Below are positions 3,655 through 53,882 of a DNA stretch of 64,000 bases, piece after piece (positions within the stretch are counted from its first letter, which is position 1; every line of letters begins with the position of its first letter). Location of the stretch: the IMG/VR virus record IMGVR_UViG_3300047445_000122. The stretch is one strand, 5' to 3'. The stretch comes from a virus (lineage: Duplodnaviria > Heunggongvirae > Uroviricota > Caudoviricetes). A model generated the notes under the pieces. The model was not told the origin of the DNA. It saw nothing but the letters and a program-made list of their open reading frames with translations, and searched no databases. The position numbers and the translations under genes were made by a program.

Positions 3655-3775
3655 CCATGGCCGTTGACCCCTGGTGTGGGGACTGGAATATTCCAGTTCT
3701 AAGTGGTTGATATTACAAGCTTGAAATCTTGACTTCAGGCGTTTTGCTGTTGTGAATTCGGAGTCGCCCGTACAT
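3655..3775. repeat. intergenic repeat element, copy A (degenerate)
   Basis: Shares TGACCCCTGGTGTG, TAAGTGGTTGAT, TTGACTT and TGCTGTTGTGAATTC with copies B-D. Confidence 0.5.
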
Positions 3776-7712: not shown

Positions 7713-9070
7713 TACTTGGTGTTGTACAGTTCGCGGCCATAGGCCTGGCTGACATCACCCAGCACGATGTACTTACAGCAACGGCACTTGTCGAAGTTGT
7801 AGTCAGTCGGTACGGACACGATGTCGCGTGGATCGACCTTGACTTCAACCAGGCGGTCGCCGCCGCTGGAGCTGGAGAAGTGACGGACATAGCCCGGAGC
7901 ACAGATGTGCAGACCGTGGGAGCAAGTCACGTTGTCGCGGTCATCGACCTTGGAACGTGGCATCTCGACAGTCAGGCCTGGGTTGTTCTTCATCGTACCA
8001 GTGTACTTGTCCAGGTAGTTGTTGCGTACAACCTTCAGGGCGATGATGTCGCCGTCGCCGTCGATGCGGAGGCCAGTCTTGGTCACGAAGTTGAACAGGT
8101 TCTTGTTGACGCGGAAGGAATGGGATTCTTCCAGCTTCTCGAAGAAGCGGCTGAACTTCTCCAGACCCTTTTCATCGGAGTCTTCCAGGCAGCGCATCAT
8201 CACGCCAGCCAGTTCGGAGTCGATGCGCTTGCCATCGAACGTCACACCCTGGGCGGTCACGACCATCTTGCCACTGGACCAGCGCGACAGAGCACCAACC
8301 ATGTCGATCAGATCGTACAGCAGTTGCAGGTCTTTCTTGTAAATCTGGTTGTTCTGGACGTTGGCCACAATCGCGCTGATCTTGTCATAGTTCTTGTGGG
8401 TCTTGTCAATCTGCAGTGGAGTGCTGTCGCGCACCACAGTCAGAACTTGAGGCAGGACGATGGCCTGGAACGGCACCAGAACATCAGGCTCGGTGTCATC
8501 CGCAGCCAGGGAGTTGGTAGGCAGTTCATCGACCGCCTTCATGATGAACAGAACAGCATCCTTGACGGTCTTGATCTTCTCAACATCTTCATCTGGAATC
8601 TCGATGTCGAACTCATCTTCCAGAGCCATAGCCAGCTCAACGGTGTCCAGGGAATCAGCGCCCAGGTCATCGATGAAGTGGGATTCTGGGGATACATCAC
8701 CGGCATCAACGCCCAGTTGATCAATGATGACTTCGATGGTCTTGTTCAGGATGGTGGTGTTCAGCTCAGGCTCCGGGGCCGGAACGATCTTGGCTTCAGC
8801 CGGGATCGCCTTGGACTTGCGTGGCTTGGCTTCCTTCTTCGCCTTCGGTTTGCGCACACGCTTCGGCGCGGCTGCTTTCTTGGCCTTCTTGGTGGTCTTG
8901 GCCTCAACCTGTTCTTCGGTTGGCTTCGGTGCGTTCTCTGCTACAGCCCAGCGAGCCAGGGTGGAGCGGGAGATACCAACCTTGTCAGCCGCTTCCGACT
9001 TGCTCAGACCATTGGCCTGGTAGTTCTGGAAGCTGATAACTGCTTGGATTTGTTGACTCGTCAGAATCAT
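7712..9070 (-). CDS. multidomain protein: N-terminal HTH, Lys-rich linker, acyl-carrier-protein (ACP) domain, and a C-terminal 250-aa domain of unknown function
   Basis: Residues about 115..185 ([59 protein letters not shown]) match bacterial AcpP almost motif-for-motif, including the DSL phosphopantetheine-attachment serine. N-terminal [20 protein letters not shown] helix-turn-helix. Strong SD before ATG 9070. Confidence 0.7.
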
Positions 9071-12429: not shown

Positions 12430-12580
12430 GATATTGGGTCGCCACACAGTGGGTCAACCCAATCAATATTCCAACCGTAAGTGCTTGATTCTACAGGTTG
12501 AGAAAATTGACTTTATTGGAATTGCTGTTGTGAATTCCGAGACAAGAAAAAGCCCCTGGTGGGAACCAGGGGCATGTTGT
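12430..12580. repeat. intergenic repeat element, copy B
   Basis: CCGTAAGTGCTTGATTCTACAGG ... TTGACTT ... GGAATT-GCTGTTGTG-AATTCC hairpin ... AAAAAGCCCCTGG..CCAGGGGC terminator ... ATGTTGTTA. Confidence 0.65.
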
Positions 12581-12858
12581 TACTTGAGAATCGCCAGACA
12601 GCTTTCTCGGTCTTTGTTCAGAGAGTCAGTCCACTGAACCACTGCCATGTCGCGGATCGAAGTGACCAGGGCTTCGACATCCCAATTGGTCAGATCGGCT
12701 TCGATGAACATGACCTTGCCATCATCCAGACGCCAGTTACACACCAGGTCAACCTTCAGTGTCTTCGGGCCGTTGTCTACATCGACACGCATCCAAGACA
12801 CGAACCAACCGGCGTTGATGGTGGCCAGGAGCTCATCAACAGTATACAGACGGCGCAT
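12580..12858 (-). CDS. hypothetical protein (92 aa)
   Basis: Complete ORF with an ATGA overlap to the TAXI gene. Followed by repeat-element copy B with its terminator. Confidence 0.4.
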   Translation of the reverse strand: MRRLYTVDELLATINAGWFVSWMRVDVDNGPKTLKVDLVCNWRLDDGKVMFIEADLTNWDVEALVTSIRDMAVVQWTDSLNKDRESCLAILK

Positions 12859-26859: not shown

Positions 26860-27246
26860 TTAGCTGAGGAGGTCGGTCAGGTGTTCATCCATCTGATCAA
26901 AGAATCCATCTGGCGGCCAGCAGATGGTTCCATACTTGCTGATTGGGACTTCCACCGCGCCGCCTGGACGGTGGAACATGAACACCACTTCGTCCAGGAT
27001 ATGGCTGCGCTCGCCCCTGTCCATATCCTGGAACTTCTGGCGGATCGCAACGCGGAGGCCGTTGAAGACCACGTCAATGTTGCTGAAAACAACTTGTTCG
27101 ATGTGCTCTGCATCAGCCAGCAGTTGTTTACCAATGTCCGACATATGCTTGCCAGTCTGCCAGACTTGACTGATGACGCGGAGGCTGGCTTGCGTCTTCG
27201 GGTCGATTTGACTCCAGTCACCACAATGGAATGTGAGTTTCTTCAT
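26860..27246 (-). CDS. hypothetical protein (128 aa)
   Basis: GGAG SD. The conserved promoter lies 33 nt upstream of the ATG. Confidence 0.45.
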   Translation of the reverse strand: MKKLTFHCGDWSQIDPKTQASLRVISQVWQTGKHMSDIGKQLLADAEHIEQVVFSNIDVVFNGLRVAIRQKFQDMDRGERSHILDEVVFMFHRPGGAVEVPISKYGTICWPPDGFFDQMDEHLTDLLS

Positions 27247-27278
27247 GTTTTCTCCAGTTTGCTACCAACATTGAAGCG

Positions 27279-27326
27279 ATTATAGACCACTTTATTGAGA
27301 AAGTAAAGTGGTCTCAGGAAATATTT
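27279..27326 (-). promoter_or_regulatory. conserved phage promoter
   Basis: Minus strand reads AAATATTTCC..CCACTTTACTT..GTGGTCTATAAT, 33 nt upstream of ATG 27246. Confidence 0.6.
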
Positions 27327-28030
27327 TCTGACACGCCTCGTGGACCAAAGTTGTCCAACTTGAAGTCCAACATGTCTGTGATCTTGATAGGACGCACCCC
27401 AGTCAGCTTCAGGTCAGCAGGGATGATATAGGGGCGCTCCTTCAGGATTTTCACTGTAGCGCGTCCATCAACAATTGGACCAACTTCAATAATCGGCGCT
27501 TCCTGGTCAATCTGTCTCTCGACATACTTGGCGTTTTCGATTGGGACGCAATGCTCCATCCCATCCTCGAAGTTGAGAGCCGAAGTGACGTTGACAGACT
27601 TGTAGTTGGCGTGATGGCTATACTCGATCACGCCAACGCACTCAGGGCGCTTGATATCCGCCATCCCCTTGCACCATTCCTCATGACGCTTGAAATGGAT
27701 CTCAATGTCCTTGACGATGTTGCGTACAGTATCGCCGGAAGCCACGAAGTCATCCAGGATCAGGTAGCGGGTCACATCAACGTTCCGCGTGCCTTCAATC
27801 TTCTCTCCGTGGCTCGATTCACCATCCTTGCGAACAACAATCAACGGGAAGTCGATCAACATCAGGGTGGCGAAGGCGAACGACAGACCGCTTTTGCCGG
27901 TCACTGCAATCGCCTGGGCGTCATACTTCTTCAGGAGGAATGGGATGACCTTGGACAGCCTCTGGGCGTGATGACGCAGAGAGACTGGATCGAACTGGAT
28001 GTCTGAGTAACCGCTGGGGCGAAATTCCAT
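27314..28030 (-). CDS. phosphoribosyltransferase (type I PRTase) domain protein with a C-terminal extension
   Basis: Canonical PRPP-binding motif RYLILDDFVASGDTV. Confidence 0.55.
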   Translation of the reverse strand: MEFRPSGYSDIQFDPVSLRHHAQRLSKVIPFLLKKYDAQAIAVTGKSGLSFAFATLMLIDFPLIVVRKDGESSHGEKIEGTRNVDVTRYLILDDFVASGDTVRNIVKDIEIHFKRHEEWCKGMADIKRPECVGVIEYSHHANYKSVNVTSALNFEDGMEHCVPIENAKYVERQIDQEAPIIEVGPIVDGRATVKILKERPYIIPADLKLTGVRPIKITDMLDFKLDNFGPRGVSENIS

Positions 28031-28109
28031 GAGTGGCTCAATGAGTGGTTGAAGTTACCGGAAGTATAATGTCAACCACTTCTCCCGGTCTAGAACTTTT
28101 TTACCAATA

Positions 28110-28262
28110 TCAACCACGCTCTGACCCCTGGTGTGTCCTGTGGGATTTACCACTCGTAAGTGCTTGATTTTAAAGAGCGTAAAACTTGACTTCTCCCGAA
28201 ATGCTGTTGTGAATTTCGGGCAATAAAAAGCCCCTGGAGGCCGAAGTCCAGGGGCAGATGTT
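28110..28262. repeat. intergenic repeat element, copy C
   Basis: TGACCCCTGGTGTG ... TCGTAAGTGCTTGATT ... GCGTAAAACTTGACTT ... CCCGAAAT-GCTGTTGTG-AATTTCGGG hairpin ... AAAAAGCCCCTGG..CCAGGGGC ... GATGTTGTTA. Confidence 0.65.
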
Positions 28263-28271
28263 GTTATCTTG

Positions 28272-28502
28272 TTAGCGTCTTAGTTGCTCTACAGCTTTGT
28301 TGAAGTCTTGAACCGGAATCTTGACCCCTTTCTTCCAGAGGTCACCGTGCATTTCTTCCCAACACTCAACTGACAGAGTCCAAGATAACGTCGTCTGGGG
28401 CAGGGTCAACTGAACAAACAGGACTTCTGGCACTCCTAACTTCCGTTTCAATACCCTCAAGTTAGCACTGTAGTCTTTGAACACAAATTCCAGACTCTCC
28501 AT
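28272..28502 (-). CDS. small hypothetical protein (about 76 aa)
   Basis: Start reassigned to ATG 28502 (AAAGGGGG SD) to remove the 108-nt overlap with ORF 28565..29611. Confidence 0.3.
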   Translation of the reverse strand: MESLEFVFKDYSANLRVLKRKLGVPEVLFVQLTLPQTTLSWTLSVECWEEMHGDLWKKGVKIPVQDFNKAVEQLRR

Positions 28503-28564
28503 AGCGCCCCCTTTGTTGAGGAAGGCATAGTATAACGTTAACGATTCACAACCGTAAAGGAAAA

Positions 28565-29611
28565 TTAAATCAGGCTGTGCGTTGTCGCTTTCGGCTGGGG
28601 AGCGCCTGCGCCGTTGTACTTCGAGCGTACTTGACCACCTTCCTTCAGCCGCAGATACTTGTCTGTTTCGCACAACAGGTTACTGCCGATGTTGTGGGCA
28701 TCTTCGAGGTGGAATTGTACAAGGGCTTCAACTTCAGCGCTGTAGCCATGCTGAATAGCAACTTGTGGCAATGCGACCTTCACCGCCTCCGACAGTTGAG
28801 CAAGCTCAAGGTAGTGTTGAGCTACCGGGATGGACTTGGTCAGTGGGCGACCATGAAGGCGATTCAAGAAGCGAACCGGGCCAGGGCCGATTGGCGCCCA
28901 GGTCTTCCAATCCGGGGCATCGCGCATGGTCATGTACTTCAAGTCTGCGATTTGCTGACCTGCCATGAAGTCACCGTTGGACTTGGCCTTGGTGAGGCGG
29001 CTGTGATAGCTCTGAAGGGTCTCCCCGGCTTCTGGCGGGCCAATTTCATAGATCGCCTTGAAGACGACATGAGCCAGGAAGTAGCGCTTGTCCTTGCACT
29101 TCTCGTACAACTCCAGGTCACCATCGACTTCAGCCGGGTTCCCGCAACCACGGATCATGTAGGCACCGGTGAACAGCTTGTCTTCCCTGCCGACAGCGCA
29201 GAAGCGGGTATACAGGTCATCAGCGTCATAGCCGTTCGTCAAGTCAGTCCAACCCAGCTTCAGGACGGTCGGAGACCAGTTGATCCAGCGCGCTACAGCG
29301 ACGTTGAACCACATGTCCTTGGAGTGATGATGTGGAGTGTAGAACTCCTTGAACAAAATCTCAGTCTCCTTGTCGTGCATGCGGTTGACGTTACAAAAAC
29401 GATGGTCGCGGATGAAGGTGTCTTCGGTCCACGGCTTGGGTTGACCTTCAGCTTTCTTGATGCGGACGGTCTCCCGCTCCAGTGCCCACTCACAGGCAGC
29501 GATCACATGGTTATGATAGTTGGCGGCGAACTCACCGTTGGCCTTGATCTGGTCTTCCAGGGTCTGGGACAGTTCAACAGCCTTGTCAAGTTTTTCAATC
29601 AGTGTGTTCAT
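28565..29611 (-). CDS. hypothetical protein (348 aa); candidate DNA-modification enzyme
   Basis: Conserved-looking globular protein with no motif I can name. Coupled by an ATGA overlap to the downstream P-loop kinase gene. Confidence 0.45.
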   Translation of the reverse strand: MNTLIEKLDKAVELSQTLEDQIKANGEFAANYHNHVIAACEWALERETVRIKKAEGQPKPWTEDTFIRDHRFCNVNRMHDKETEILFKEFYTPHHHSKDMWFNVAVARWINWSPTVLKLGWTDLTNGYDADDLYTRFCAVGREDKLFTGAYMIRGCGNPAEVDGDLELYEKCKDKRYFLAHVVFKAIYEIGPPEAGETLQSYHSRLTKAKSNGDFMAGQQIADLKYMTMRDAPDWKTWAPIGPGPVRFLNRLHGRPLTKSIPVAQHYLELAQLSEAVKVALPQVAIQHGYSAEVEALVQFHLEDAHNIGSNLLCETDKYLRLKEGGQVRSKYNGAGAPQPKATTHSLI

Positions 29612-34854: not shown

Positions 34855-34892
34855 GAAAAAGCCCCTGGACGGACCAGGGGCTTTTTGTATTT
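34855..34892 (-). terminator. terminator at the end of the tRNA array
   Basis: AAAGAAAAAGCCCCTGGAC-g-GACCAGGGGCTTTTTG, immediately 3' of the last tRNA (minus sense). Confidence 0.7.
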
Positions 34893-34970
34893 TGGTGCCC
34901 GTTGCACGGATTTGAACCTGCGACCCCACCCTTACAGGGGGCGTGCTCTACCAGACTGAGCTAAACGGGC
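34893..34970 (-). tRNA. tRNA, probably Thr (anticodon TGT)
   Basis: Perfect acceptor stem GCCCGTT/AACGGGC plus encoded CCA, and a D-arm TAGCTCAGTCTGGTAGAGC. Anticodon loop reads CCTGTAA. T-stem is imperfect by eye. Confidence 0.5.
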
Positions 34971-34971
34971 T

Positions 34972-35046
34972 TGGCATACCGGGATGGGATCGAACCACCG
35001 ACACCAGGTTTTGGAGACCTGTGTTCTACCACTGAACTACCGATAC
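34972..35046 (-). tRNA. tRNA-Trp (CCA)
   Basis: Manual cloverleaf: anticodon loop CTCCAAA, T-loop TTCGATC, encoded CCA end. Confidence 0.7.
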
Positions 35047-35228
35047 ATTGTGTTGTTACTTATACTGCTTGGCCAGAGCCATCAGACCCTTCGCAGCTTC
35101 ATCGCCATAGGTCTTGAAGAATGCTTCAGTGGTCTTGTCATAGATGCTCTTGGCCAGAGCTGGATTCTTGTCGTCCAGAGCCTTAGCCAGCTGACTACCT
35201 TTGGCGGCGTGCGTATCCTTGTAGCGGA

Positions 35229-35516
35229 TCACTTGATCACAACCAGGATGTCTTCGTTGGACAGGATCAGATATTCCACGCCGTCAACCTTCACACCCTG
35301 ACCGGCGCCACGCTTGTGGACGATCTTGTCGCCCTTGTGGAAGGGTTCTGATTCACGCAGAGCGCCGGTGCTGACGTGGGAGACTTCAACCACAATGCCT
35401 TCAGAGACAGAAGCAGCAGGAGCCGGGGCGACGATGATACCGCCAGCTGAGGTTTCAGGGGCGGATTCACGCGTGATCACGCAGTAGCCTGGAGTTGGCT
35501 TGATTTGTTTGGACAT
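35229..35516 (-). CDS. GroES-like co-chaperonin (Hsp10; T4 gp31 analogue)
   Basis: IVHKRGAGQGVKVDGVEYLILSNEDILVVI matches the GroES C-terminus. Start set to ATG 35516 (MSKQIKPT) with AAGGAAA SD, because the longer track ORF would run into tRNA genes. Confidence 0.7.
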   Translation of the reverse strand: MSKQIKPTPGYCVITRESAPETSAGGIIVAPAPAASVSEGIVVEVSHVSTGALRESEPFHKGDKIVHKRGAGQGVKVDGVEYLILSNEDILVVIK

Positions 35517-35534
35517 GGTTTCCTTTTGATTGAA

Positions 35535-35608
35535 TGGAGGCGTGTGGGTGAATCGAACACCCGTCTTAGGCTTTGCAGGCCCAGACCTAACCACTCAGAC
35601 AACACGCC
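35535..35608 (-). tRNA. tRNA-Cys (GCA)
   Basis: Perfect acceptor stem, anticodon loop CTGCAAA, T-arm GGGTG TTCGATT CACCC. D-arm is unusual. Confidence 0.6.
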
Positions 35609-35614
35609 ATTGAT

Positions 35615-35697
35615 TGGTGGGGATACAGGGACTCGAACCCAGACGCCGAAGCCGGAGCGTTTGAAACTCCTGTGTCTACCAATTTCACCATATCCCC
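35615..35697 (-). tRNA. tRNA-Leu (CAA), class II
   Basis: Anticodon stem GGAGT/GCTCC with loop TTCAAAC, and a long variable arm. Confidence 0.6.
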
Positions 35698-35818
35698 AAA
35701 TTTCAACACCATCCTTACGCCCTCGCCCATCTATCGTGACAAGTTAGCAGAACTTCGGTGCACCTCACTTCAAGCAGTGCTGGCTACGCTGCACGGACTG
35801 CCGAATGATGTTGAAATT

Positions 35819-35894
35819 TGGAGCGGGTGACAGGTCTCGAACCTGCGCATGCCGGCTTGGAAGGCCAGTGCTTTACCAACTTAGCTACACCCGC
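35819..35894 (-). tRNA. tRNA-Gly (TCC)
   Basis: Perfect acceptor stem GCGGGTG/CACCCGC, anticodon loop CTTCCAA, encoded CCA. Confidence 0.8.
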
Positions 35895-35896
35895 AA

Positions 35897-35972
35897 TGGC
35901 GCCCAGGGCCGGAATCGAACCAGCGACACGTGGATTTTCAGTCCACTGCTCTACCAACTGAGCTACCTGGGC
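35897..35972 (-). tRNA. tRNA-Phe (GAA)
   Basis: Acceptor stem GCCCAGG/CCTGGGC, anticodon loop CTGAAAA, T-loop TTCGATT. Confidence 0.8.
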
Positions 35973-36107
35973 ATTGAAGCGTTTTGCATGGAAGTAGACT
36001 TCAATGCTATTCATGGACAATATACGCTGACTAGAACTGTAGAGACAGGGATGAGAACGTACAATGCTGCTTCACCACATATCAGGGAGCGACCCAGAAC
36101 ATTCAAT

Positions 36108-36193
36108 TTGGTGCGAACGGAGGGACTCGAACCCATCACGCCTAGTGGCACATCCCCCTCAAGGATGCGTGTCTGCCAATTTCACCACGTTCG
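36108..36193 (-). tRNA. tRNA-Leu (GAG), class II
   Basis: Anticodon stem CATCC/GGATG with loop TTGAGGG, and a long variable arm. Confidence 0.65.
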
Positions 36194-36269
36194 CATTGCC
36201 CCGGAGCCTGAAGAAACCATCCGGGCAGACCTGCTTCAGATCAAGTCTGGGGAGCAACCCCGCTAGAAC

Positions 36270-36524
36270 TCAATTCAACAAGCGACTCAACAACCGCTGG
36301 CTCTTGTTTCCATGTTTGGGTGAGTTGATGGTGACGTCCGGGAAGTCTGACTTGTTGAGCTGACGCCCAATCCGAGTCTCAAGACAACCCACGCACAACA
36401 TACCAACTATCGACCCAACAACCTTCATCCACAAATCAGTGTTGATGAAGTAGTGCTCGTTGGCCTTGCCGGTGTCTACACAGCAATCCAAACACAGCCA
36501 CTTTCGTCTTGATTTACACGCCAT
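36270..36524 (-). CDS. small Cys-rich protein (84 aa) embedded in the tRNA array
   Basis: The CLDCC...CVGC pattern suggests a zinc-ribbon-like fold. No tRNA overlaps it. Confidence 0.35.
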   Translation of the reverse strand: MACKSRRKWLCLDCCVDTGKANEHYFINTDLWMKVVGSIVGMLCVGCLETRIGRQLNKSDFPDVTINSPKHGNKSQRLLSRLLN

Positions 36525-36541
36525 GTGACTCCCATATCAAT

Positions 36542-36618
36542 TGGCGCGCCGAAGTGGACTTGAACCACTGACCCTGGGATTAGAAGGCCCATGCTCTATC
36601 CAGCTGAGCTACCGGCGC
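36542..36618 (-). tRNA. tRNA-Arg (TCT)
   Basis: Acceptor stem GCGCCGG/TCGGCGC, anticodon loop CTTCTAA (one mismatched closing pair), T-loop TTCAAGT. Confidence 0.55.
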
Positions 36619-36629
36619 GGCGCTGTTCG

Positions 36630-37151
36630 TTATGGAAGAATTATAAGTGAGGAGGTCAGAGGAGCAGAAACTTGTACTTGCTTCTCAACCACAACGTAGA
36701 AGCGGGAGAATGCCGCTGCCTTCTTGGACACTGGATACGGTCGCCTCATCAACTGACACTTAACCTTAGTCCAGAATCCCACCTTGATATCCACCAATTC
36801 AGTGATGTCAGCGGCGAAGCGGAACAGACCTCCAGTGGTATCAGCATCCAACATCTTACGCAGTTGTTCGCCGCCAGGAGTGTTGAAGACTGAGATCAGC
36901 ATGGTCTTGTCATGATCCATCTTGGTGACCAGGAAGTCGGCATATTCACTCGACTTGTCCAGACTGCCATAGATCACATCCACGAGGCCGTATTGAGCCT
37001 TGGTAGGGCGCTTACCCTCTCCCAGCCATTCCACGTTTTGAGCTTCCTGGGCTTTGTTCAGGGCATCGATGGCGTCAGTGTAGTCCAAGTCTGCCAGTGC
37101 GCCACGAGGCTCGAACTGGACTTGGTACTCACCAATGATTTCTTGTAGCAT
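36630..37151 (-). CDS. hypothetical protein (173 aa) within the tRNA array
   Basis: Complete ORF flanked by tRNA genes. Confidence 0.45.
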   Translation of the reverse strand: MLQEIIGEYQVQFEPRGALADLDYTDAIDALNKAQEAQNVEWLGEGKRPTKAQYGLVDVIYGSLDKSSEYADFLVTKMDHDKTMLISVFNTPGGEQLRKMLDADTTGGLFRFAADITELVDIKVGFWTKVKCQLMRRPYPVSKKAAAFSRFYVVVEKQVQVSAPLTSSLIILP

Positions 37152-37231
37152 ACACGCCCTCTTGATGTTCGGAGCAGCCTTCCACTGAAGGAGGTCAAGG
37201 AAAGGAGGAAAACTTGACGGCTGCGGTTGAT

Positions 37232-37309
37232 TGGTCTCCGCGACAGGATTTGAACCTGCGACCCCTCGCTCCCAAAGCGAGTGCTCTACACGGGCTGAGC
37301 TACACAGAG
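37232..37309 (-). tRNA. tRNA-Pro (TGG)
   Basis: C1-G72 acceptor stem (typical of tRNA-Pro), anticodon stem CTCGC/GCGAG with loop TTTGGGA. Confidence 0.7.
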
Positions 37310-37506
37310 AATGTTAGGTGTCAATGCTGGATTGTTGTGGAAGGATTTCAAGTGTTATGCCCTTGTTCTCCAACATTGACGGGGATGGTCGGCAGACTAC
37401 CCTTATGTAGTGTGACATTCCTCCAACCGGACATATTCTAACGCATGTTGGCGTCTAGTCTATCCGGCGGAATGCCGTTTTGGTTTTAAACTACTGCCGT
37501 TTGATC

Positions 37507-37582
37507 TTGGTGGTAGGGGCAGGGATCGAACCTGCGACCTGTGGATTATCGGTCCACTGCTCTGCCAACTGAGCTACCCCAC
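37507..37582 (-). tRNA. tRNA-Ile (GAT)
   Basis: Perfect anticodon stem GTGGA/TCCAC with loop CCGATAA. Note C at position 33. Confidence 0.6.
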
Positions 37583-37597
37583 CGGGTTGGTACTTAG

Positions 37598-37685
37598 ACC
37601 ATACATAACAACACTCGCGCCTTCTCTGAACATGTAGGCACTGTAGTGGGTTTCTGTTCCTCAGGAGGAGTGTTGTTATGTATGG
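37598..37685. repeat. 18-bp perfect inverted repeat (CCATACATAACAACACTC / GAGTGTTGTTATGTATGG) with a 52-nt loop
   Basis: Seen directly in the sequence. The right arm overlaps the 3' end of tRNA-Ser(TGA) by 3 nt. Confidence 0.6.
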
Positions 37686-37775
37686 CGGAAATGGTGAGAC
37701 TCGAACTCACACAGCGGTTGCCCGCCCTTCAGTTTTCAAGACTGCTGCCGCTAGGCCAACTCGGCTAACATTTCC
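37683..37775 (-). tRNA. tRNA-Ser (TGA), class II
   Basis: Acceptor stem GGAAATG/CATTTCC, anticodon loop CTTGAAA, long variable arm. Confidence 0.65.
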
Positions 37776-37776
37776 G

Positions 37777-37868
37777 TGGCGGAGACTGTTGGATTTGAAC
37801 CAACGGAGCCACTTGCGTGACTCGGTGCCTTAGCAGGGCACTGCAATAGACCGCTCTGCCAAGTCTCC
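37777..37868 (-). tRNA. tRNA-Ser (GCT), class II
   Basis: Acceptor stem GGAGACT/AGTCTCC, anticodon stem GTGCC/GGCAC with loop CTGCTAA, long variable arm. Confidence 0.7.
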
Positions 37869-38221
37869 AGTGTTTGGTGTGATCTCCTTGATACCGCCTC
37901 AGACCCTGTCTATGCATTCGGGCGTCACACTCTTCAGGTTTCAATCCCGGTTACAGCGTCCGGGGAACTAACGCCAGGCCCACTAGACGGAGGCTGGTGC
38001 TCTGTTGTACTGACTCTCTCAAATTGCACTTGAGGGCGTGTGCGCGGGAGTCTGCTTTTGCCCTGAATTCTGTCCACCCGAAAATCAAGTACATCCACTG
38101 TCCGCTGACTGGAAGCGGGGTTCGTATCAATCTTGATGTTGGGAAAGGGTGTCTCCATCTGATTCCAACGTTGCCTCCAACCCCTCTCGACCAGTCAGCC
38201 CGATACTCATTGGATATTCTG

Positions 38222-38296
38222 TGGCCGGAAGGACAGGAATCGAACCTGTGTACCAAGGCTATCCCGCCCCTGCTCTACCAACTGAGCTACCTCCCG
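38222..38296 (-). tRNA. tRNA-like gene with unresolved anticodon (possibly degenerate)
   Basis: Good acceptor, D and T arms (ACAGG TTCGATT CCTGT) and an encoded CCA. The anticodon arm does not fold canonically by eye. Confidence 0.4.
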
Positions 38297-38369
38297 GAAG
38301 CACAACCCATATTCCTGCAATCAGCATGCGTTCCCAATGGATTGTGGCCGTTCTATCACGACTGTCAAC

Positions 38370-38447
38370 TGGTTGCGACGGGCTGGATTTGAACCAGCGA
38401 CCTGAGGATTATGAGTCCTCTGCTCTACCTGACTGAGCTACCTCGCC
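38370..38447 (-). tRNA. tRNA-Met-like (CAT) with an imperfect acceptor stem
   Basis: Anticodon stem GAGGA/TCCTC with loop CTCATAA. The 3' end GCAACCA resembles an initiator tRNA. Two acceptor-stem mismatches including 1-72. Confidence 0.5.
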
Positions 38448-38454
38448 TTTGATC

Positions 38455-38530
38455 TGGCGCCGTGAGCTGGATTTGAACCAACGTGACACCCGCAACATGG
38501 GTGCATCCTAAGCCTCTAGATGATCACGGC
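38455..38530 (-). tRNA. tRNA with a GTT anticodon (Asn-like) and an atypical anticodon loop
   Basis: Perfect acceptor stem GCCGTGA/TCACGGC. Anticodon stem CACCC/GGGTG with loop ATGTTGC. Confidence 0.4.
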
Positions 38531-38618
38531 AAAACTACTGAAGTGAGAATCCTCTACATCGCGGCGGCAAGGACGCATCAGGCGTCCAATGTAGTTGACT
38601 CTCGCTTCAGGAGTCTGA

Positions 38619-38694
38619 TGGCGTCTCCAACGAGATTTGAACTCGTGTACCCACCTTGAAAGGGTGGTGTCCTAGACCGCTAGACGATGGAGAC
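38619..38694 (-). tRNA. tRNA-Glu (TTC)
   Basis: Near-identical architecture to E. coli tRNA-Glu: TCGTCTAGCGGTCTAGGACACC..CTTTCAA. Confidence 0.8.
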
Positions 38695-38696
38695 AG

Positions 38697-38778
38697 TGGA
38701 AGGGGCGACAGGATTTGAACCTGTGACGTATGCTGGGATCAAAACCCAGTGCCTTGAACCGAACTTGGCGACACCCCT
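38697..38778 (-). tRNA. tRNA-Gln (TTG)
   Basis: Anticodon stem CTGGG/CCCAG with loop TTTTGAT. A1-U72 acceptor stem. Long D-loop. Confidence 0.55.
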
Positions 38779-38786
38779 ATTGTTTT

Positions 38787-38863
38787 TGGCTCCCCAGGCT
38801 GGACTCGAACCAGCGACCAACACATTAACAGTGTGCTGCTCTACCAAACTGAGCTACTGAGGA
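38787..38863 (-). tRNA. tRNA-Asn (GTT)
   Basis: Anticodon loop CTGTTAA, D-arm TAGCTCAGTTTGGTAGAGC, T-loop TTCGAGT. Confidence 0.75.
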
Positions 38864-38920
38864 TTTGTTACTACAGCAGGGTATCAGTTCGCCGGAGCGG
38901 AATTGCTCGACGTGAAGAGA

Positions 38921-38953
38921 ATTATAGACCACTTCTGCTAAGAAGTAAAGCTC
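38921..38953 (-). promoter_or_regulatory. promoter of the tRNA array
   Basis: Minus strand reads GCTTTACTT..GTGGTCTATAAT, about 55 nt upstream of the first (highest-coordinate) tRNA. The 24-nt leader is identical to the one at 43684..43711. Confidence 0.55.
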
Positions 38954-38972
38954 AACTTACTTGACAACCGAA

Positions 38973-39890
38973 TTACATGTTGTTGTCGTACATCCACTGC
39001 ATCTGCGCCTTCACGTTTGCGAGGGAACCCACGATCACGTAGTTGACGAAGATGTAAACGCCGTCTGGGACGATGTTAGGGATGCGGAACACAGCATTCC
39101 ACTTCACAACCGGGTTGATGCCAGTCGCCTGATAGTTCCAGCGACCGAAACCCGCACCAGGGTAAGTCGATTGTGGCAGGGAACGGTTGTAGATACCCAT
39201 TGCATGAGTACCATTGCTGTTAGCGAAGATCAGCGGAAGACCTTGTTCAGGGCTGCAAGTCGCATAGGGCGGCGTGCAGTAGCTGATCGAGGCCAGTTGA
39301 CGACTGCCCTTCACATCCAGGGTGTAGAAGTTGTTGAACTCAACAGGCATGTAGCCGGTCAGGGTCTCGAACTTACCACGCACCCAGGATGGTTCGCCGG
39401 TGCTCTTGGGTGCTGCGTATTGAACTTCATAGCGCATGTAGGTCGCATAGGAACCTTCATACAGCTGGATGTTCTTGGTCAGCAACCAGTTGGACCGGGC
39501 CACACCGTTCACAGGGCGCCAGTACGACATCATGTTCACGCCCTTGACGGTCGGAGGAGTCGCCAGGGTGCTGTAGTTCACAGCGATACTCGTGGAGGCA
39601 GAAGGATTGACGCCGTTGTAGGGCACTTCCGCCCCGGCTTCGTTGGGGTTGTAGTTCTCTTCCAGGTCGCCAGACGCATTGCTGACAGTCATGGAGGATT
39701 GGAGTTGACGGCCATGGTCATAGTCGTCAATGAACTCCTTGCCGCTCCACTTCACGGAGCAAACTGCTTCAGCATCCCAGGAGCAGGTCTTAACAGTCAC
39801 ACCACGCGACGGCGAGGTGATAGTGTAGTCTGCCCAAGCCGGGGAGGAGATACCAACGATCATTGCCATTGCTGCGATAATACGCTTCAT
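38973..39890 (-). CDS. secreted protein of unknown function (306 aa)
   Basis: Start reassigned to ATG 39890 (AAGGAAA SD), giving the signal peptide MKRIIAAMAMIVGISSPAWA. Several Cys pairs. Confidence 0.5.
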   Translation of the reverse strand: MKRIIAAMAMIVGISSPAWADYTITSPSRGVTVKTCSWDAEAVCSVKWSGKEFIDDYDHGRQLQSSMTVSNASGDLEENYNPNEAGAEVPYNGVNPSASTSIAVNYSTLATPPTVKGVNMMSYWRPVNGVARSNWLLTKNIQLYEGSYATYMRYEVQYAAPKSTGEPSWVRGKFETLTGYMPVEFNNFYTLDVKGSRQLASISYCTPPYATCSPEQGLPLIFANSNGTHAMGIYNRSLPQSTYPGAGFGRWNYQATGINPVVKWNAVFRIPNIVPDGVYIFVNYVIVGSLANVKAQMQWMYDNNM

Positions 39891-39989
39891 GCCATTTCCT
39901 TTATGGTTGTTTTCTTTCGCGCCGCCCCGAATGAGGCGACGGAAAGAATTATAAACCACAATATCAACGGCGTAAAGATCAATATTTTA

Positions 39990-40511
39990 TCAACCCATCT
40001 TCTTCCCCGCTTGGATCAGGCGTTTCCGCTTGATCTTGAAGCTGTCGGATGAAGTCCCGCCGAACATCTCAGCATTCGCATACAGTTCGGCCCAGGCAGT
40101 GAGGTACAACATGTGAGAGAGTGGATGTTTCCACAACTCCACTACGTCATCCCCGCGCCGGGTGTGGAACTCCATGTCCATCCTCATGAGTTCAGCAACG
40201 GTATTGTCCTCAGGATAGAGGGCCAGCCATTGAGCAGCGCTCGCTTGGGCATGATCCGGGAACCTACCAGACCCGTCAGCAACAAGTGGCTTCCCGCAGT
40301 CGTGATAGATTTGATAGGTCTCCAGGATCAAGTCATCGTGGACATCGATCTTGCTTTTCAAGAAGGAGTAGTGAGGGCAGGTATCATCAGTCAGCTTCAG
40401 ATACGCCTCCCGCACCCTATAACCATGCTCTAAGACATTCAAGCTGGTTGTTTGGGACGTTTCCTGCATCAGCTGCTCTAAAGCGCCTATAGTGGCCGCT
40501 AGATGTCTCAT
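39990..40511 (-). CDS. HD-domain phosphohydrolase
   Basis: H...HD motif (HYSF...IYHDCGK). Start ATG 40511 overlaps the stop of the PTH2-like gene (ATGA). Confidence 0.5.
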   Translation of the reverse strand: MRHLAATIGALEQLMQETSQTTSLNVLEHGYRVREAYLKLTDDTCPHYSFLKSKIDVHDDLILETYQIYHDCGKPLVADGSGRFPDHAQASAAQWLALYPEDNTVAELMRMDMEFHTRRGDDVVELWKHPLSHMLYLTAWAELYANAEMFGGTSSDSFKIKRKRLIQAGKKMG

Positions 40512-40813
40512 TTCGTACCTCCCTTGAACAGGCGGTACTTCTTGAAGGCAGGGCGCTGATGTTGATACACAGGCTCCGACGCGAATGAGGTGAACCCATA
40601 GTCCCAATCGGGCTCATGGAACCTCACGAACTTTATCCCGCTGTCTTGAAGTTTGGCATACGCCTTCTCCAGTTCATCCTTGTTCTTGACTTGGATGACA
40701 ATCAGCGAGTTGGGTTCAGCTGTCGGATTCGGGAAGGCCAGGCCGCTCTCTTGGGCAGCGTGGCAAGACTGAACCAGTATTTGCTCAATAGGCAAGTCCA
40801 TGCGAATGAACAC
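40508..40813 (-). CDS. peptidyl-tRNA hydrolase, PTH2 family-like
   Basis: VQSCHAAQ (PTH2 motif is QCxHAA) and LIVIQVKNKDELEKAYAKL...GIKF parallel the PTRH2 family core. Probable GTG start. Confidence 0.5.
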   Translation of the reverse strand: MFIRMDLPIEQILVQSCHAAQESGLAFPNPTAEPNSLIVIQVKNKDELEKAYAKLQDSGIKFVRFHEPDWDYGFTSFASEPVYQHQRPAFKKYRLFKGGTK

Positions 40814-40874
40814 ATAGATCCATGCCTTGTCAGTGCACCTACTGGTTGATGATTGTTTCTTGGGATTTCATGGA

Positions 40875-41222
40875 TTACTCCTGAGGTTTGGTTGAGAAAA
40901 TACTGCGATATGTGTAGCTCTGATGGCGTCCACTTCCGTGGGTCTTGCGAATCATGAGGTTCCACTTGTTGAAAGCGAAGCACTCATCATTGACCGTCTT
41001 GCCCCACACAAACATACTGATCAGGAAGCCAACCAGATTCTGGGCAATCACCAGAGGCGAGAGGAACGCTGCGACAGTGAGGTGGACGATCATGACGCCG
41101 ATAGTTTGGGCGACATTGTGAGTCTTGGCCTCCATAGTGAACGGAGTCCAGGTTGCCATCGTCTCAGAGAACACTGTCAGAACGACGCCGACGCAATAAG
41201 CCAAGAAAATCAAGCTAGACAT
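40875..41222 (-). CDS. small 3-TM membrane protein (115 aa)
   Basis: Start reassigned to ATG 41222 (MSSLIFL) with GGAG SD. Three hydrophobic helices. Confidence 0.4.
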   Translation of the reverse strand: MSSLIFLAYCVGVVLTVFSETMATWTPFTMEAKTHNVAQTIGVMIVHLTVAAFLSPLVIAQNLVGFLISMFVWGKTVNDECFAFNKWNLMIRKTHGSGRHQSYTYRSIFSTKPQE

Positions 41223-41350
41223 AAAATCTCCATTTGTTGACCACATTGGAACACCCTCAACTCCCATCAACCGCGCACTTGCGGTCTATGAAGATCGACC
41301 TCTGTCAAGGCCATTTCTGAGTGACAGCTCATCTCAAGGACGTTCTAATG

Positions 41351-41428
41351 TGGTGCGTCGTACAGGAATCGAACCCGTGACCTGTCTGGTTAGGCGCCAG
41401 ACTGCTCTGCCAACTGAGCTAACAACGC
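41351..41428 (-). tRNA. tRNA-Arg (CCT)
   Basis: Acceptor stem GCGTTGT/ACGACGC, anticodon stem TCTGG/CCAGA with loop CGCCTAA, T-loop TTCGATT. Confidence 0.5.
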
Positions 41429-41432
41429 ATTA

Positions 41433-41519
41433 TGGTGGGCGTGGTTGGATTTGAACCAACGAAGTACAGAGACACCGGATTTACAGTCCAGCGCAGATTA
41501 CCGCATCTGCAACACACCC
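41433..41519 (-). tRNA. tRNA-Tyr (GTA), class II
   Basis: Anticodon loop CTGTAAA, long variable arm, acceptor stem GGGTGTG/CACGCCC. Confidence 0.65.
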
Positions 41520-44092: not shown

Positions 44093-44529
44093 GTCATTCC
44101 TTTCACAATATAACACATTAGGGCGAAGCCCGTTTAATTCAGGGTAGGTGAGGAGAAAGGCAAAACAGTCCCACAGAATCTCCCCAGTTAGGTTCTGATT
44201 CTGTCGGAGTTCTGCCTGTTTCAGTGCCGGAGCCGGATCAGGAAGCGCCATTCAATATCGTCTGGGCGCTCTAGTTCCCACATTGACTCGCGAACGTGTG
44301 AGCCGTAACACCCCTGGGAACGTCCAGACCAGATAGCCTGGGAACAGTGGGGCGGAGATTCGTTACACCCTGGTATCTCCGAGAACAACAAGTCATAGCC
44401 ACGTACAACAAAGAACCGCCTATGACGAACGCAGGATTATATAGACAAGTGGACTACCAAGTAAAGACACACTGGTTGACAACCCAATCCTGCCTAAGTA
44501 AAGGGATTCATACACTATAAGGTGACGAT

Positions 44530-46326
44530 ATGTCTAATACCAGATTCACCACCAGTTTCGACTACGCCGACATCATCAATGCTCTGCAGACATTCATGCG
44601 AGCCTCAGATGACTTCCGCGATGTGAACTGGGACGGCAGCATGGCCAAGACTCTGTTGAGAGTGCTGTCCTACAATACCCAGCTTCAACAAGTAGCCAAC
44701 GGCTTCCTGTTCAATGAGCTCAGCATCGACAGCGCGACGATCCAGAACAACGTCAACTCCATCGCTTCCGGCGCTCTGGGCTACATGCCACAGGGTATCC
44801 GCGCTGCTGTGTACTACGCCGATGTGACTGTGTCCGTCCCGGTAGGCACCAACAACCCTCCTCCATACATCAACATCGACCGCAGCTCCAAGTTCTTCGC
44901 AGCCAAGGACGGTGTGGCCCTGAACTTCGTGGCAGATACCAGCTACACAGCCCCTCTGTCAGAAGACGGACTGACCTATCAATTCAAGGGCGTGAAGCTG
45001 ATCCAAGGCAATTGGGTCTCCAATTCCTTCGTTTGTCAGGTATCCAACAACGTTGAATCATACGTCCTGCCGAATAAGGACATCGACGTTGACTATTTGA
45101 GCGTGGCTGTGACCGTACCCACAGCACTCCAATCTCTGGCTGCGTATAAGCGCGTTAGAGGTGTCTTTGATCTGGGTGCAACCAACAAGTCCTACTTCCT
45201 GAGTTTGAACAAGGCCGGGAACTACGCACTTGAGTTTGGTGATGACAAGCTCGCACGCCGCATCCAGTATGGCGAGGTGGTGTTGGTTGACAGTCTCCAG
45301 ACCCTGGGTTCACTTGGCAATAACGCATCGAACGTGTCTGCTGTCGGTTCCATCGGCGGCTTCTTCGACATCAAGGTTGTAGGCAACCAAGAGTTCTCCT
45401 ATGGCGGTGACGAAGCAGAGGACATCGAGACCACACGTAAAATCGCCCCTATGGCGTTTTCAGCACAGGGGTCAGCCGTATCCAGTGGCGACTATGTTGC
45501 GCTGACGAAAGAGCTGTTCTCAGAGGCCGATAGTGTGTCTTCATGGGGTGGTGAGTATGATGAGCCTCCGAAGTTCGGCTATCAGATCGTTGCGGTCAAG
45601 CCAAAGAACAGCAAGACCCTGAACGACAGCCAGAAACAAGTTCTTGCTGGGATTCTCCAAGAGCGTTGCGTGGGCTCCATCAGTCCTATCATCAAAGACC
45701 CGGACTACACCTACATCAACCTTGAATCCAACGTTGTGTATGCCAAGAACTCAACCCTGCTGAGTGAACAATCCCTGCGGGTGAAGATTGATCAATCCCT
45801 GAAGACCTATTCCAAGAATGTGTTGGAGTTCTTCGGCGGCGACTATCTGCACTCCAACCTCACGACCTTCATCACTGCGGTCGATCCATCCTTCACTGGC
45901 AACGTGACGACTGTGAAGTTCACGAAGAAGTTTCTGCCTGTCCTCAAGGCCACCGGCACATACACCTTCAACTTCGGCGTCCCAATCCGCCCGAACAGCG
46001 TTGATGTTGTCAACTTCAAGATTCTGGATGCGACGTACAGCACCTGGGACTTCCACTTGATTGATGACGGCAACGGGAGTGTCTTCTGCCAGCGCGTGAA
46101 CCCTGTACTGTCCTCGGACACTTACACGTACCCAACGGCTGTAGGAACAGTGGATTACGCTGGCGGGATCGTGGTGCTCAACAAGTTCGCGCCTATCTCT
46201 GTGTTGGGGATTGAAGGAATGGTGGCCTTGACCATCACCCCGGATGCCCAAGACCCATCGTTGCTGTCCACTCGCTCCTCGATCAACGTGATCGACAAGA
46301 CTGTGATCAGCTTCACTGCCCGTTGA
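44530..46326 (+). CDS. baseplate wedge protein (T4 gp6 / P2 gpJ family)
   Basis: The N-terminal region (DYADIINALQTF...AKTLLRVLSYNTQL) parallels T4 gp6 (LNVLCDLLAYNTLY). Size 598 aa. First gene of the plus-strand virion module. Confidence 0.5.
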   Translation: MSNTRFTTSFDYADIINALQTFMRASDDFRDVNWDGSMAKTLLRVLSYNTQLQQVANGFLFNELSIDSATIQNNVNSIASGALGYMPQGIRAAVYYADVTVSVPVGTNNPPPYINIDRSSKFFAAKDGVALNFVADTSYTAPLSEDGLTYQFKGVKLIQGNWVSNSFVCQVSNNVESYVLPNKDIDVDYLSVAVTVPTALQSLAAYKRVRGVFDLGATNKSYFLSLNKAGNYALEFGDDKLARRIQYGEVVLVDSLQTLGSLGNNASNVSAVGSIGGFFDIKVVGNQEFSYGGDEAEDIETTRKIAPMAFSAQGSAVSSGDYVALTKELFSEADSVSSWGGEYDEPPKFGYQIVAVKPKNSKTLNDSQKQVLAGILQERCVGSISPIIKDPDYTYINLESNVVYAKNSTLLSEQSLRVKIDQSLKTYSKNVLEFFGGDYLHSNLTTFITAVDPSFTGNVTTVKFTKKFLPVLKATGTYTFNFGVPIRPNSVDVVNFKILDATYSTWDFHLIDDGNGSVFCQRVNPVLSSDTYTYPTAVGTVDYAGGIVVLNKFAPISVLGIEGMVALTITPDAQDPSLLSTRSSINVIDKTVISFTAR

Positions 46327-53838: not shown

Positions 53839-53850
53839 GGTATAATACCT

Positions 53851-53882
53851 GAGCCCCTGGATTCGTCCAGGGGCTTTTCTTT
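53851..53882 (+). terminator. rho-independent terminator (plus strand)
   Basis: GCCCCTGGA-ttcg-TCCAGGGGCTTTTCTTTT, after fibre gene 51937..53838. Confidence 0.7.

Follow-up and report, generated by a model that had tools for sequence, protein, structure and literature searches.

Locus and genomic context

An intergenic element at positions 28,110–28,262 was analyzed together with its other copies in a 64-kb stretch of viral DNA, hereafter the window (IMG/VR record IMGVR_UViG_3300047445_000122; Caudoviricetes), which is part of a ~165-kb metagenomic contig. The protein families in the window, namely rIIA, rIIB, DnaB-like helicase, RNA ligase, gp6, gp13, gp14, gp15, terminase, and 5-hmdU DNA kinase, were those of a T4-type myovirus with hypermodified thymidine chemistry. 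The nearest cultured relative was Delftia phage PhiW-14, in which the kinase showed 54% amino-acid identity. Genes from position 1 to ~44 kb were mostly located on the minus strand, and the structural module was on the plus strand from 44.5 kb. A megablast search of window positions 27000–29500 against cultured phages gave no match, and no related loci were recovered using the 5-hmdU kinase as a query.

The copy at this locus (copy C) was the sole complete copy within the window. Block 1 (28122–28133, minus strand) reads TGACCCCTGGTG on the plus strand and CACCAGGGGTCA on the minus strand, and contains ACC-N3-GGT. Hairpin 2 follows at 28140–28153 (GTGG-gattta-CCAC), with an A/T-rich center that is kept between copies. 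Block 2 (28155–28172, minus strand) is CGTAAGTGCTTGATTTTA on the plus and TAAAATCAAGCACTTACG on the minus strand, with a perfect match to the consensus of integration host factor (IHF), AATCAAGCACTTA, at 28157–28169. Block 3 (28186–28192) reads TTGACTT on the plus strand, which is −35-like, and AAGTCAA on the minus strand, where 13 nt lie between its end and the TAAAAT hexamer of block 2. Hairpin 1 (28195–28220) pairs CCCGAAAT with ATTTCGGG around the loop GCTGTTGTGA. The minus-strand terminator of a 76-aa gene (28272–28502, minus) occupies 28225–28255, with GCCCCTGG..CCAGGGGC and then TTTTTATTG. Between this terminator and the stop codon of the same gene lies TAACAACA (28259–28266, minus strand), which is the conserved TGTTGTTA read on the minus strand.

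Copies of the element

The sequence-only reading had described four copies, A to D, with shared ordered blocks, and all four were found at their places, each in plus orientation. Copy A was truncated (3665–3764, minus strand) and consisted of block 1 (3665–3676), hairpin 2 (CTGGAATATTCCAG, 3683–3696), block 2 (3699–3715), block 3 (3729–3735), and the loop sequence of hairpin 1 (3746–3754). Copy B (12476–12582, minus strand) contained block 2 (12476–12493), block 3 (12507–12513), hairpin 1 (12518–12538), and a terminator (12547–12573), with no block 1 or hairpin 2. Its TAACAACA included the stop codon of the gene at 12580–12858 (minus). In copy D (60116–60260, minus strand), block 1 (60116–60127) was followed by a weak hairpin 2 (60133–60146), block 2 (60149–60166), a degenerate block 3, CCCACTT (60180–60186), hairpin 1 (60189–60213), and the terminator of the minus-strand gene at 60258–60509 (60219–60247), which has the variant stem GCCCTGGG..CCCAGGGC. 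Copies A, B, and C were each located between two minus-strand genes. No plus-strand open reading frame (ORF) across the element was common to the copies.

The 12-mers TGYTGTTGTGAA and TAAGTGSTTGAT each had four exact matches in the 64 kb, all of them inside copies A–D. The ordered blocks held as the mark of a family, but not every copy had every block: TGACCCCTGGTG was exact in A and C, had one mismatch in D, and was absent from B, and D lacked TTGACTT. The spacing of the blocks was identical and gap-free, with 35 nt from the start of block 1 to the IHF core, 29 nt from there to TTGACTT, and 17 nt from there to the loop. Over 105 core positions, the copies were 55–70% identical to each other (30–45% diverged), and their flanks were unrelated (18–42%). 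Fixed spacing together with this level of core identity between unrelated flanks is due neither to chance nor to recent duplication. The copies are, judged by these comparisons, old paralogues under constraint and not recent duplicates.

A profile search with the four copies detected a fifth copy, E, which starts at L099 11096–11139, outside the window, and is cut by the end of the fetched DNA. Copy E was oriented in the opposite direction and its flanking genes were inverted likewise; thus, the orientation of the element is tied to the direction of transcription. A remnant, F, with half of hairpin 1 and a terminator, was located at L099 ~8385–8435, outside the window to the left of position 1. 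The truncated copies A, D, and F all terminated at block boundaries. Around remnant F (L099 8330–8435), GTATAAT on the reverse strand was followed by ~25 nt, the 3′ half of hairpin 1 (GTGATTTCGGG), and then AAAAAGCCCCTGG..CCAGGGGC, which looks like the result of a deletion that removed blocks 1–3.

The pattern TAAGTGSTTGAT-N28-38-TGYTGTTGTGAA had no match in viral-contig or metagenome-contig collections, so the full element is not present in those collections. A looser pattern, ACTT-N10-TGYTGTTGTGAA, gave 90 matches, all at chance level according to the element profile.

Hairpins

The comparison of hairpin 1 is based on three intact copies. The stems were GGAATT/AATTCC in B, CCCGAAAT/ATTTCGGG in C, and CTGGATTT/AAATCCAG in D. 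On both strands of these copies, the folding energies ranged from −4.8 to −10.5 kcal/mol with RNA parameters and from −2.7 to −6.9 with DNA parameters; the values for copy C were −10.3 to −10.5 as RNA and −6.7 to −6.9 as DNA. The stem of copy A was broken, and its hairpin was essentially absent (−0.2 to −2.5 kcal/mol). A conserved loop within a varying but complementary stem, as proposed earlier, was therefore confirmed in B, C, and D and not in A. Since copy A keeps the loop sequence without a stem, the loop sequence seems to matter by itself too.

RNAalifold reported three pairs of hairpin 1 changed on both sides. By hand, the stems of B and D differed by two double changes in the same register, and copy C had a third, unrelated stem with a one-base register shift. 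By our own estimate, the chance of 6–8 perfect pairs around a fixed loop is ~7e-4 per copy. Such pairing around a fixed loop in three diverged copies is too improbable to be chance and indicates that the hairpin is selected as a hairpin. The earlier argument that the stem changes imply selection on structure is thus upheld, because complementarity was kept through different stems in B, C, and D. The covariance check that had been suggested for this point was possible in part: the three paralogues co-varied, and the sampled relatives, which lack the full element, added no homologues. Every pair in the arms (6–8 bp) was Watson–Crick, so the arms give no indication of the active strand or of whether RNA or single-stranded DNA is the relevant form.

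Hairpin 2, between blocks 1 and 2, formed well in A and moderately in C; it was weak in D, and B had none. Its A/T-rich center was more conserved than its stem. Without the terminator, the core was not unusually structured compared with shuffled sequence (z −0.85 to −1.8). At the gathering threshold, Rfam matched only tRNAs in the whole window; at E ≤ 10, positions 28000–28320 gave no more than two sub-threshold chance matches.

Terminator

In B, C, and D, the minus strand had a GC-rich stem followed by TTTTT, and the upstream minus-strand gene had its stop codon ahead of this stem. The stem of nine pairs (seven GC), followed by TTTTTATTG or TTTTTCTTG, qualifies as an intrinsic terminator on this strand. 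On the plus strand, the T-rich tail was interrupted (AGATGTTGTT). The sequence-only reading had described the terminator as built into the element; the position of the T-run makes it the terminator of the upstream minus-strand gene and not the end of a plus-strand RNA gene. Copy A had no terminator, and the upstream ORF (3713–4144, minus) runs into the element and ends inside it.

The GCCCCTGG/CCAGGGGC stem was also found at 1565, 34860, and 53850 without the rest of the element. It is therefore an ordinary terminator of the preceding gene and belongs to a genome-wide family of look-alikes. In total, at least five intrinsic terminators had the identical GCCCCTGG/CCAGGGGC stem with differing loops (1565–1590, 34860–34885, 53850–53875, 12552–12573, and 28230–28255), and those at 1565 and 34860 were bidirectional. 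The stem sequence is homogenized across the genome.

Block 1 and promoter-like signals

On the coding (minus) strand, block 1 reads CACCAGGGGTCA(A/G) and is located in the −35 position. In copies A and E, GGTCAA was followed after exactly 17 nt by TATAAT, which in copy A lies at 3646–3641, upstream of the ATG at 3608. Copy C had GGTCAG-N17-TAAAAA (28103–28098), a weaker hexamer, and a further TTATACT nearer to the gene. The PhiW-14 copy upstream of gp218 (a topoisomerase gene) showed a distance of 19 nt before TATAAT. Copy B had GTATAAT at 12400–12394, upstream of the ATG at 12353, and copy D had no −10 hexamer after block 1. Overall, GTATAAT or TTATACT was followed by the ATG of the next gene within 33–60 nt in A, B, C, and E, and not in D.

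GTATAAT-type hexamers precede many genes of this phage and form two classes. The first, on the minus strand, was T4-early-like, CTTTAC-N16/17-GTATAAT, at 61032, 43712, 25063, 6757, and 28535 (with TTATACT at 28535). The second had GTATAAT without the CTTTAC −35 and was found at 21759, 17145, 12400, and 3647. By its placement, block 1 is the apparent occupant of the −35 position of class 2 promoters.

Block 1 also provides stop codons. In copy D, it supplies the TGA of gp13 (59360–60118, plus strand). Its TGA (TGACCCCTGGTG / TGACCAGTGGTG) was the stop codon of three unrelated co-oriented genes, which are gp13 (window 60116–60118), PhiW-14 gp160 (L106 6213–6224, PhiW-14 position 106213), and PhiW-14 gp108 (L105 35779–35790, PhiW-14 position 85779).

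Several known signals were tried against the element and rejected. A sigma-70 promoter on the plus strand, TTGACT-N17-GTGAAT, has T instead of A at −11, and a sigma-54 promoter would need GG-N10-GC, which was absent. For a T4 middle promoter (MotA/AsiA), the geometry was similar, with AAGTCAA 13 nt before TAAAAT, TAGAAT, or TAATAT (MotA boxes lie 11–13 bp before TAnnnT). However, the box differs from (a/t)(a/t)(a/t)TGCTT(t/c)A, and the hexamer belongs to the widespread IHF-type motif described below; furthermore, no MotA is annotated in PhiW-14. An N4-type hairpin promoter was dismissed because the loop is 9–10 nt and not 3 nt and no virion RNA polymerase was present. Antiterminator pairing of block 1 with the terminator arm did not fit, since copy D alters the arm and leaves block 1 unaltered. 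A boxA-like CGCTCTTTAA was found in copy C only, a DnaA box TTCACAACA agreed at just 7 of 9 positions, and a Tus/Ter-like ATGTTGTTAC with one mismatch was judged a coincidence.

Block 2 and the widespread 18-mer

The sequence CGTAAGTGSTTGATT in block 2 is a perfect match to the IHF consensus WATCAANNNNTTR. On the minus strand, block 2 reads TA(A/G/T)(A/T)AT-CAA(G/C)CACTTA(C/G)(G/A). The consensus matches were AATCAAGCACTTA in B and C, AATCAACCACTTA in D, and TATCAACCACTTA in A, each with an A/T-rich 5′ flank (TAAA, TAGA, or GTAA). Four of the five WATCAANNNNTTR matches in the window were inside elements, compared with 1.5 expected by chance for the window. The block CGTAAGTG(C/G)TTGATT, listed earlier as a part of the element, was indeed present in the copies but is not private to this phage, as it is a widespread IHF-consensus-matching site.

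The 18-mer TARAATCAASCACTTACG had more than 118 exact matches in IMG/VR contigs with G+C contents of 35–65% and unrelated flanks. In species-representative genomes (596 Gb), more than 120 exact matches were found. By our own calculation, ~70 chance matches are expected in 596 Gb; therefore, the match count in genomes is uninformative, while the placement of the matches is not. Among the 120 genome matches listed, tRNA genes within 120 nt were upstream on the same strand in 48 cases, on the opposite strand in one, and downstream in none. In 45 of these 120, the distance to a tRNA 3′ end was at most 10 nt, and the motif was always on the strand of the tRNA; many isotypes and several Gram-negative phyla were involved. 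At 8 of the 45 loci, a tyrosine integrase was among the next two ORFs, and other loci had island-type genes.

In viral contigs, the 18-mer was 90% intergenic, showed no strand bias relative to ORFs, and was often flanked on both sides by short, iteron-like repeats specific to the contig. Its neighbors included integrases (8), primase-helicases (3), major capsid genes (9), and GIY-YIG/NUMOD3 endonucleases (9). Extra copies in the same contigs kept AATCAA..ACTTA and varied at two central bases only. Attachment-site arms and replication origins with iterons are the classical locations of IHF sites, and on account of these contexts IHF is the leading candidate to bind block 2.

Paired inverted copies of the motif made up terminator-like palindromes, bidirectional in form, in some contigs. 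In one such AT-rich viral contig (L143: 600–630, 2986–3016, and 4718–4748), two inverted copies formed long palindromes with flanking A- and T-runs. These palindromes, AAAATCAAnnACTTA-gcg-TAAGTnnTTGATTTT, resemble bidirectional terminator hairpins between genes. Literature searches for the 18-mer as DNA or RNA words returned primers alone, and no matching description was found in the literature that could be searched.

Relatives and the gp13–gp14 junction

As the sequence-only reading had noted, copy D was located at the edge of a minus-strand insert between gp13 and gp14. In PhiW-14, gp13 directly adjoins gp14 without an insert (45780–45791). In three relatives with gp13 71–72% identical, gp13 was followed by a bidirectional terminator and three mutually homologous minus-strand genes, with no element (L349 10806–11901, L351 9312–11998, and L352 8861–9916); one of them also had a GDSL-lipase gene. 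No relative exceeded the 90% identity wanted for mapping breakpoints. The junction in the window consisted of gp13, copy D, and two unrelated minus-strand ORFs (83 and 161 aa; 60258–60991) without family matches. Copy D stands at the 3′ edge of a cassette of two genes without homologues among the cassettes of the relatives. Three different contents of one junction indicate that gp13–gp14 is a hyperplastic site, where copy D marks the edge of a replaced cassette. A mobile or recombinogenic role had been suggested for this copy; the replaced cassette fits the recombinogenic part.

No copy of the element was found in ~75 kb of syntenic DNA from L349, L351, and L352 (gp13) and from L353 and L354 (rIIA 37–39% identical). 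What PhiW-14 had at 136.9 kb, with a variant at 24.0 kb, was the left part alone: block 1, a hairpin whose stem differed, and block 2. Block 1 and a hairpin were present at 85.8 and 106.2 kb. Absence from related genomes had been named beforehand as a result that would speak against a structured family. This was partly the outcome, as the sampled loci had no element and PhiW-14 keeps the left part only. When the genes on either side of each copy were scanned with Pfam and PHROG, no nuclease, recombinase, or RNA-binding protein was detected.

Interpretation of the element

The reading that we favor, with somewhat less than even confidence, is a composite intergenic cassette of the promoter-early stem-loop (PeSL) type, both regulatory and recombinogenic, which acts on DNA and has been enlarged into an IHF-organized upstream region. 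The element most likely organizes transcription between small early genes and marks the sites at which gene cassettes are swapped, as far as can be judged from the DNA. This reading is built on the observed anatomy, spacing, and consensus matches, on an orientation tied to gene direction, and on truncated copies at junctions. A repeated unit that reaches from a stop codon to the next promoter, follows transcription, shares a terminator stem, and has truncated copies carries the signature of PeSL elements.

PeSL and PmSL elements are known from T4-like phages (Arbiol et al. 2010, PMC2839356; Comeau et al. 2014, PMC4122927). In PeSL elements, the stem-loop lies immediately upstream of a near-consensus sigma-70 (or MotA-box) promoter, and reuse of the terminator stem across the genome has been described for their stem-loops (PMC4122927). 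Like these elements, the copies described here are repeated composites of terminator and promoter between small early genes of a T4-type myovirus. A conserved stem-loop common to many terminators was present in B and C, as a variant stem in D, and absent in A. The copies may likewise lie where small ORFs are inserted, deleted, or replaced, as the cassette beside copy D suggests, and degraded half copies occur. In A, B, C, and E, but not in D, a downstream gene with its Shine-Dalgarno sequence and start codon follows. Unlike in PeSL elements, ~105 bp of conserved sequence separate the terminator from the promoter-like hexamer, and this extra part contains the co-varying fixed-loop hairpin, the IHF-consensus site, the second hairpin, and two TTGAC boxes. 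In addition, the −35 place is taken by GGTCA(A/G) and not by TTGACA or TTTAC, whereas the canonical CTTTAC-N17-GTATAAT occurs elsewhere in the window.

On the coding strand, the proposed cassette would begin where the upstream small early gene ends, with its stop codon and intrinsic terminator, followed by a hairpin-forming inverted repeat around a fixed core of 9–12 nt (TTCACAACAGCA). The AAGTCAA box, the perfect IHF-consensus site, and the second, A/T-centered inverted repeat would come next. The box CACCAGGGGTCA would then stand at the −35 place, 17 nt before a GTATAAT-type −10, ahead of the ribosome-binding site of the next gene. Bending of this upstream region of ~100 bp by IHF or an equivalent protein would bring the conserved boxes into a fixed three-dimensional arrangement, in which they would bind RNA polymerase and/or a phage factor. 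A geometry set by bending would explain why the spacing is strict despite sequence drift. The cassette would insulate the downstream promoter from the upstream gene and set its activity, and the repeated unit could serve as a homology patch for recombination that inserts, deletes, or replaces small gene cassettes, a role already put forward for the PeSL elements of T4-like phages.

Known IHF sites, such as those in phage attachment-site (attP) arms, iteron origins, and the IS10 outside end, share with block 2 a perfect WATCAANNNNTTR with an A/T-rich 5′ side. The contexts of the identical 18-mer elsewhere, between element-specific repeats, beside integrase or primase-helicase genes, and directly after tRNAs, are similar too. 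Unlike in those sites, the motif is more constrained (AATCAANNACTTAC), and binding here is a prediction from the consensus match. The setting also differs, since this is a lytic T4-type phage with no integrase in the sequence searched. The repetitive IHF-binding palindromic (RIP) element of Escherichia coli, also called bacterial interspersed mosaic element 1 (BIME-1), has an IHF site between two repetitive extragenic palindromic (REP) sequences. The phage element resembles it as a repeated extragenic unit of ~100 bp at gene 3′ ends, with an IHF site between two hairpin-forming palindromes. It differs in showing no REP resemblance, as compared by eye alone, in having short stems (4–8 bp) that vary between copies where REP stems are conserved, and in being joined to a terminator and a promoter in a phage genome.

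A number of points weigh against the favored cassette. IHF binding, promoter activity and use, and recombination are all steps that we infer from sequence. A model based purely on double-stranded DNA leaves the perfect but differing Watson–Crick stems of hairpin 1 unexplained, and these stems point to a single-stranded form (RNA or single-stranded DNA) with a specific reader. Because GGTCAA is unlike the −35 of sigma-70 promoters, the reading has to assume an activator or a modified polymerase. Copy B has the hexamer without block 1, the hexamer of copy C is weak, and the plus strand also carries −35-like TTGAC boxes with −10-like hexamers 17 nt further on. In 48 of 101 further IHF-consensus sites, AC preceded TTR, compared with ~6 expected, and the 18-mer had no exact match in 2.3 Gb of cultured-phage records. 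This extra invariance and the lack of an exact cultured-phage match leave room for a reader more specific than IHF, which is possible. Finally, the search for copies covered ~85 kb of the ~165-kb genome, which is a limited sample.

The sequence-only reading had suggested a small RNA, here taken as a plus-strand transcript of ~100 nt, which has little support and which we consider unlikely. Its promoter would combine block 1, which on the plus strand reads TTGACC, a good −35, with the A/T center of hairpin 2 (AATATT / AATTAT) as the −10, and the transcript would start just before block 2. It would contain single-stranded blocks 2 and 3, hairpin 1 as a recognition stem-loop, an A-rich linker (CAAUAAAAA), and the GC hairpin as a terminator; the 18 nt of block 2 would act as a "seed" antisense to the widespread motif UAAAAUCAAGCACUUACG. 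Hfq-type small RNAs have a 5′ single strand, an internal hairpin, an A/U-rich linker, and a terminator, and the plus strand matches this layout with its conserved single-stranded 5′ part, internal hairpin, A-rich linker, and GC hairpin. The co-varying hairpin 1 would lie within the transcript, and the GC hairpin passes a lenient plus-strand terminator scan in B, C, and D. However, the promoter-like site was found in A (TTGACC-N17-AATATT, with TG before the second hexamer) and E (TTGACC-N17-AATTAT) only. C and D have GATTTA as the −10, without the final T, and CTGACC as the −35; B has no −35; and no promoter for a discrete plus-strand transcript was conserved in all copies. Copy A also lacks a terminator, and elsewhere the plus-strand U-tail is poor (AGATGTTGTT) compared with TTTTT on the minus strand. 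Furthermore, Rfam gave no match, the z-scores of the core are ordinary, the all-Watson–Crick arms provide no G-U evidence for either strand, and in D and two PhiW-14 copies a co-oriented gene has its stop codon within block 1. A transcript on the other strand is certain wherever the terminator is read through. In the leader of the downstream mRNA, both hairpins could direct processing or stabilize the message, for instance if cleavage in the U-rich stretch behind the terminator left a 5′ stem-loop. Hairpin 1 does begin 4–9 nt after the U-run, and its stems co-vary. Such a leader element is nevertheless very unlikely, since a 5′ stabilizing hairpin does not need a conserved loop, the IHF-consensus block, TTGAC boxes, and fixed spacing would be left unexplained, and copy D points antisense into the 3′ end of gp13.

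Two further explanations place the function in DNA itself. The element could be an IHF-bent nucleoprotein site that serves DNA metabolism, acting as one of several replication origins or as a substrate for site-specific cassette exchange. Single-stranded or bent DNA there would present the loop of hairpin 1 and the TGACC boxes to a phage factor. T4-type phages use multiple replication origins, and hairpins that are read as single-stranded DNA typically combine perfect stems with a fixed loop, as in rolling-circle and CRESS-virus origins and N4 promoters. The Watson–Crick stems of hairpin 1, the strict helical spacing of the blocks, the dispersed copies, and the 18-mers that elsewhere lie between iteron-like repeats adjoining primase-helicase and integrase genes are all consistent with this. 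Against it, the scans of flanking genes revealed no recombinase, HUH nuclease, or initiator beside any copy, the element itself has no iterons, a 9–10-nt loop with arms of 6–8 bp would be expected to extrude poorly from duplex, and the orientation follows gene direction, which points to transcription. We regard a site of this kind as rather unlikely; if true, cassette exchange in T4-type genomes would be site-specific rather than merely homologous. The least probable of the readings is a non-autonomous, miniature mobile element spreading from one intergenic site of these phages to another, like a MITE (miniature inverted-repeat transposable element) or a palindrome-associated transposable element (PATE). 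Dispersed and truncated copies, partial homologues in PhiW-14 with none at the syntenic sites of closer relatives, and a block 1 that provides stop codons for three unrelated genes would suit such an element, as would the 7–8-bp inverted pair formed by the left box CCCCTGG and the right terminator arm CCAGGGG. However, this "terminal repeat" is the common terminator stem, and in copy D the stem is changed (GCCCTGGG) while block 1 shows no corresponding change. In addition, no target-site duplication or flanking direct repeat was found at the copy ends, the 30–45% divergence excludes a recent burst, and the flanking-gene scans detected no transposase.

The shuffling of small accessory genes in T4-type phages is still explained mainly by the PeSL hypothesis of short terminator and promoter repeats. 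The favored cassette would carry the PeSL concept to a distant branch, the PhiW-14-like phages, whose thymidine is hypermodified. Three ingredients would be new: a site for DNA bending by a host protein, boxes in strict phase, and a hairpin under selection as such. This suggests that PeSL-type cassettes may be organized nucleoprotein sites and not homology patches only. The most conserved block of this phage element is moreover one instance of an 18–25-nt motif found again, without a letter changed, in unrelated mobile elements and immediately after tRNA genes of several Gram-negative phyla. The motif AAAATCAANNACTTAC could be an undescribed signal common to attachment sites, origins, tRNA 3′ flanks, and phage cassettes across phyla, and its reader may be more specific than IHF.

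Other features of the window

The neighbor of copy C was a gene for a phosphoribosyltransferase (PRTase)-like protein (238 aa; 27314–28030, minus). The nearest homologues of this protein, with 44–64% identity over half the length, were encoded in unrelated podovirus-type contigs that carry a T7-like terminase and a family A polymerase; being unrelated, these contigs were of no use for synteny. This distribution suggests that the PRTase-like gene was acquired by horizontal transfer.

The exact T4-type TATAAATA occurred nowhere in the window. Candidate late promoters, CACTATAAGG (~44500–44520, plus) and CACTATAAAT (~53905–53920, plus), were located shortly upstream of the gp6-like gene and the gene for a 1720-aa structural protein, respectively.

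Twenty tRNA genes were clustered at 34893–41519 (minus), with small ORFs interspersed. The rIIB-like protein (7712–9070, minus) combined an N-terminal helix-turn-helix with a phosphopantetheine-attachment (PP-binding) domain (E = 6e-14), a combination that is unusual for rIIB.

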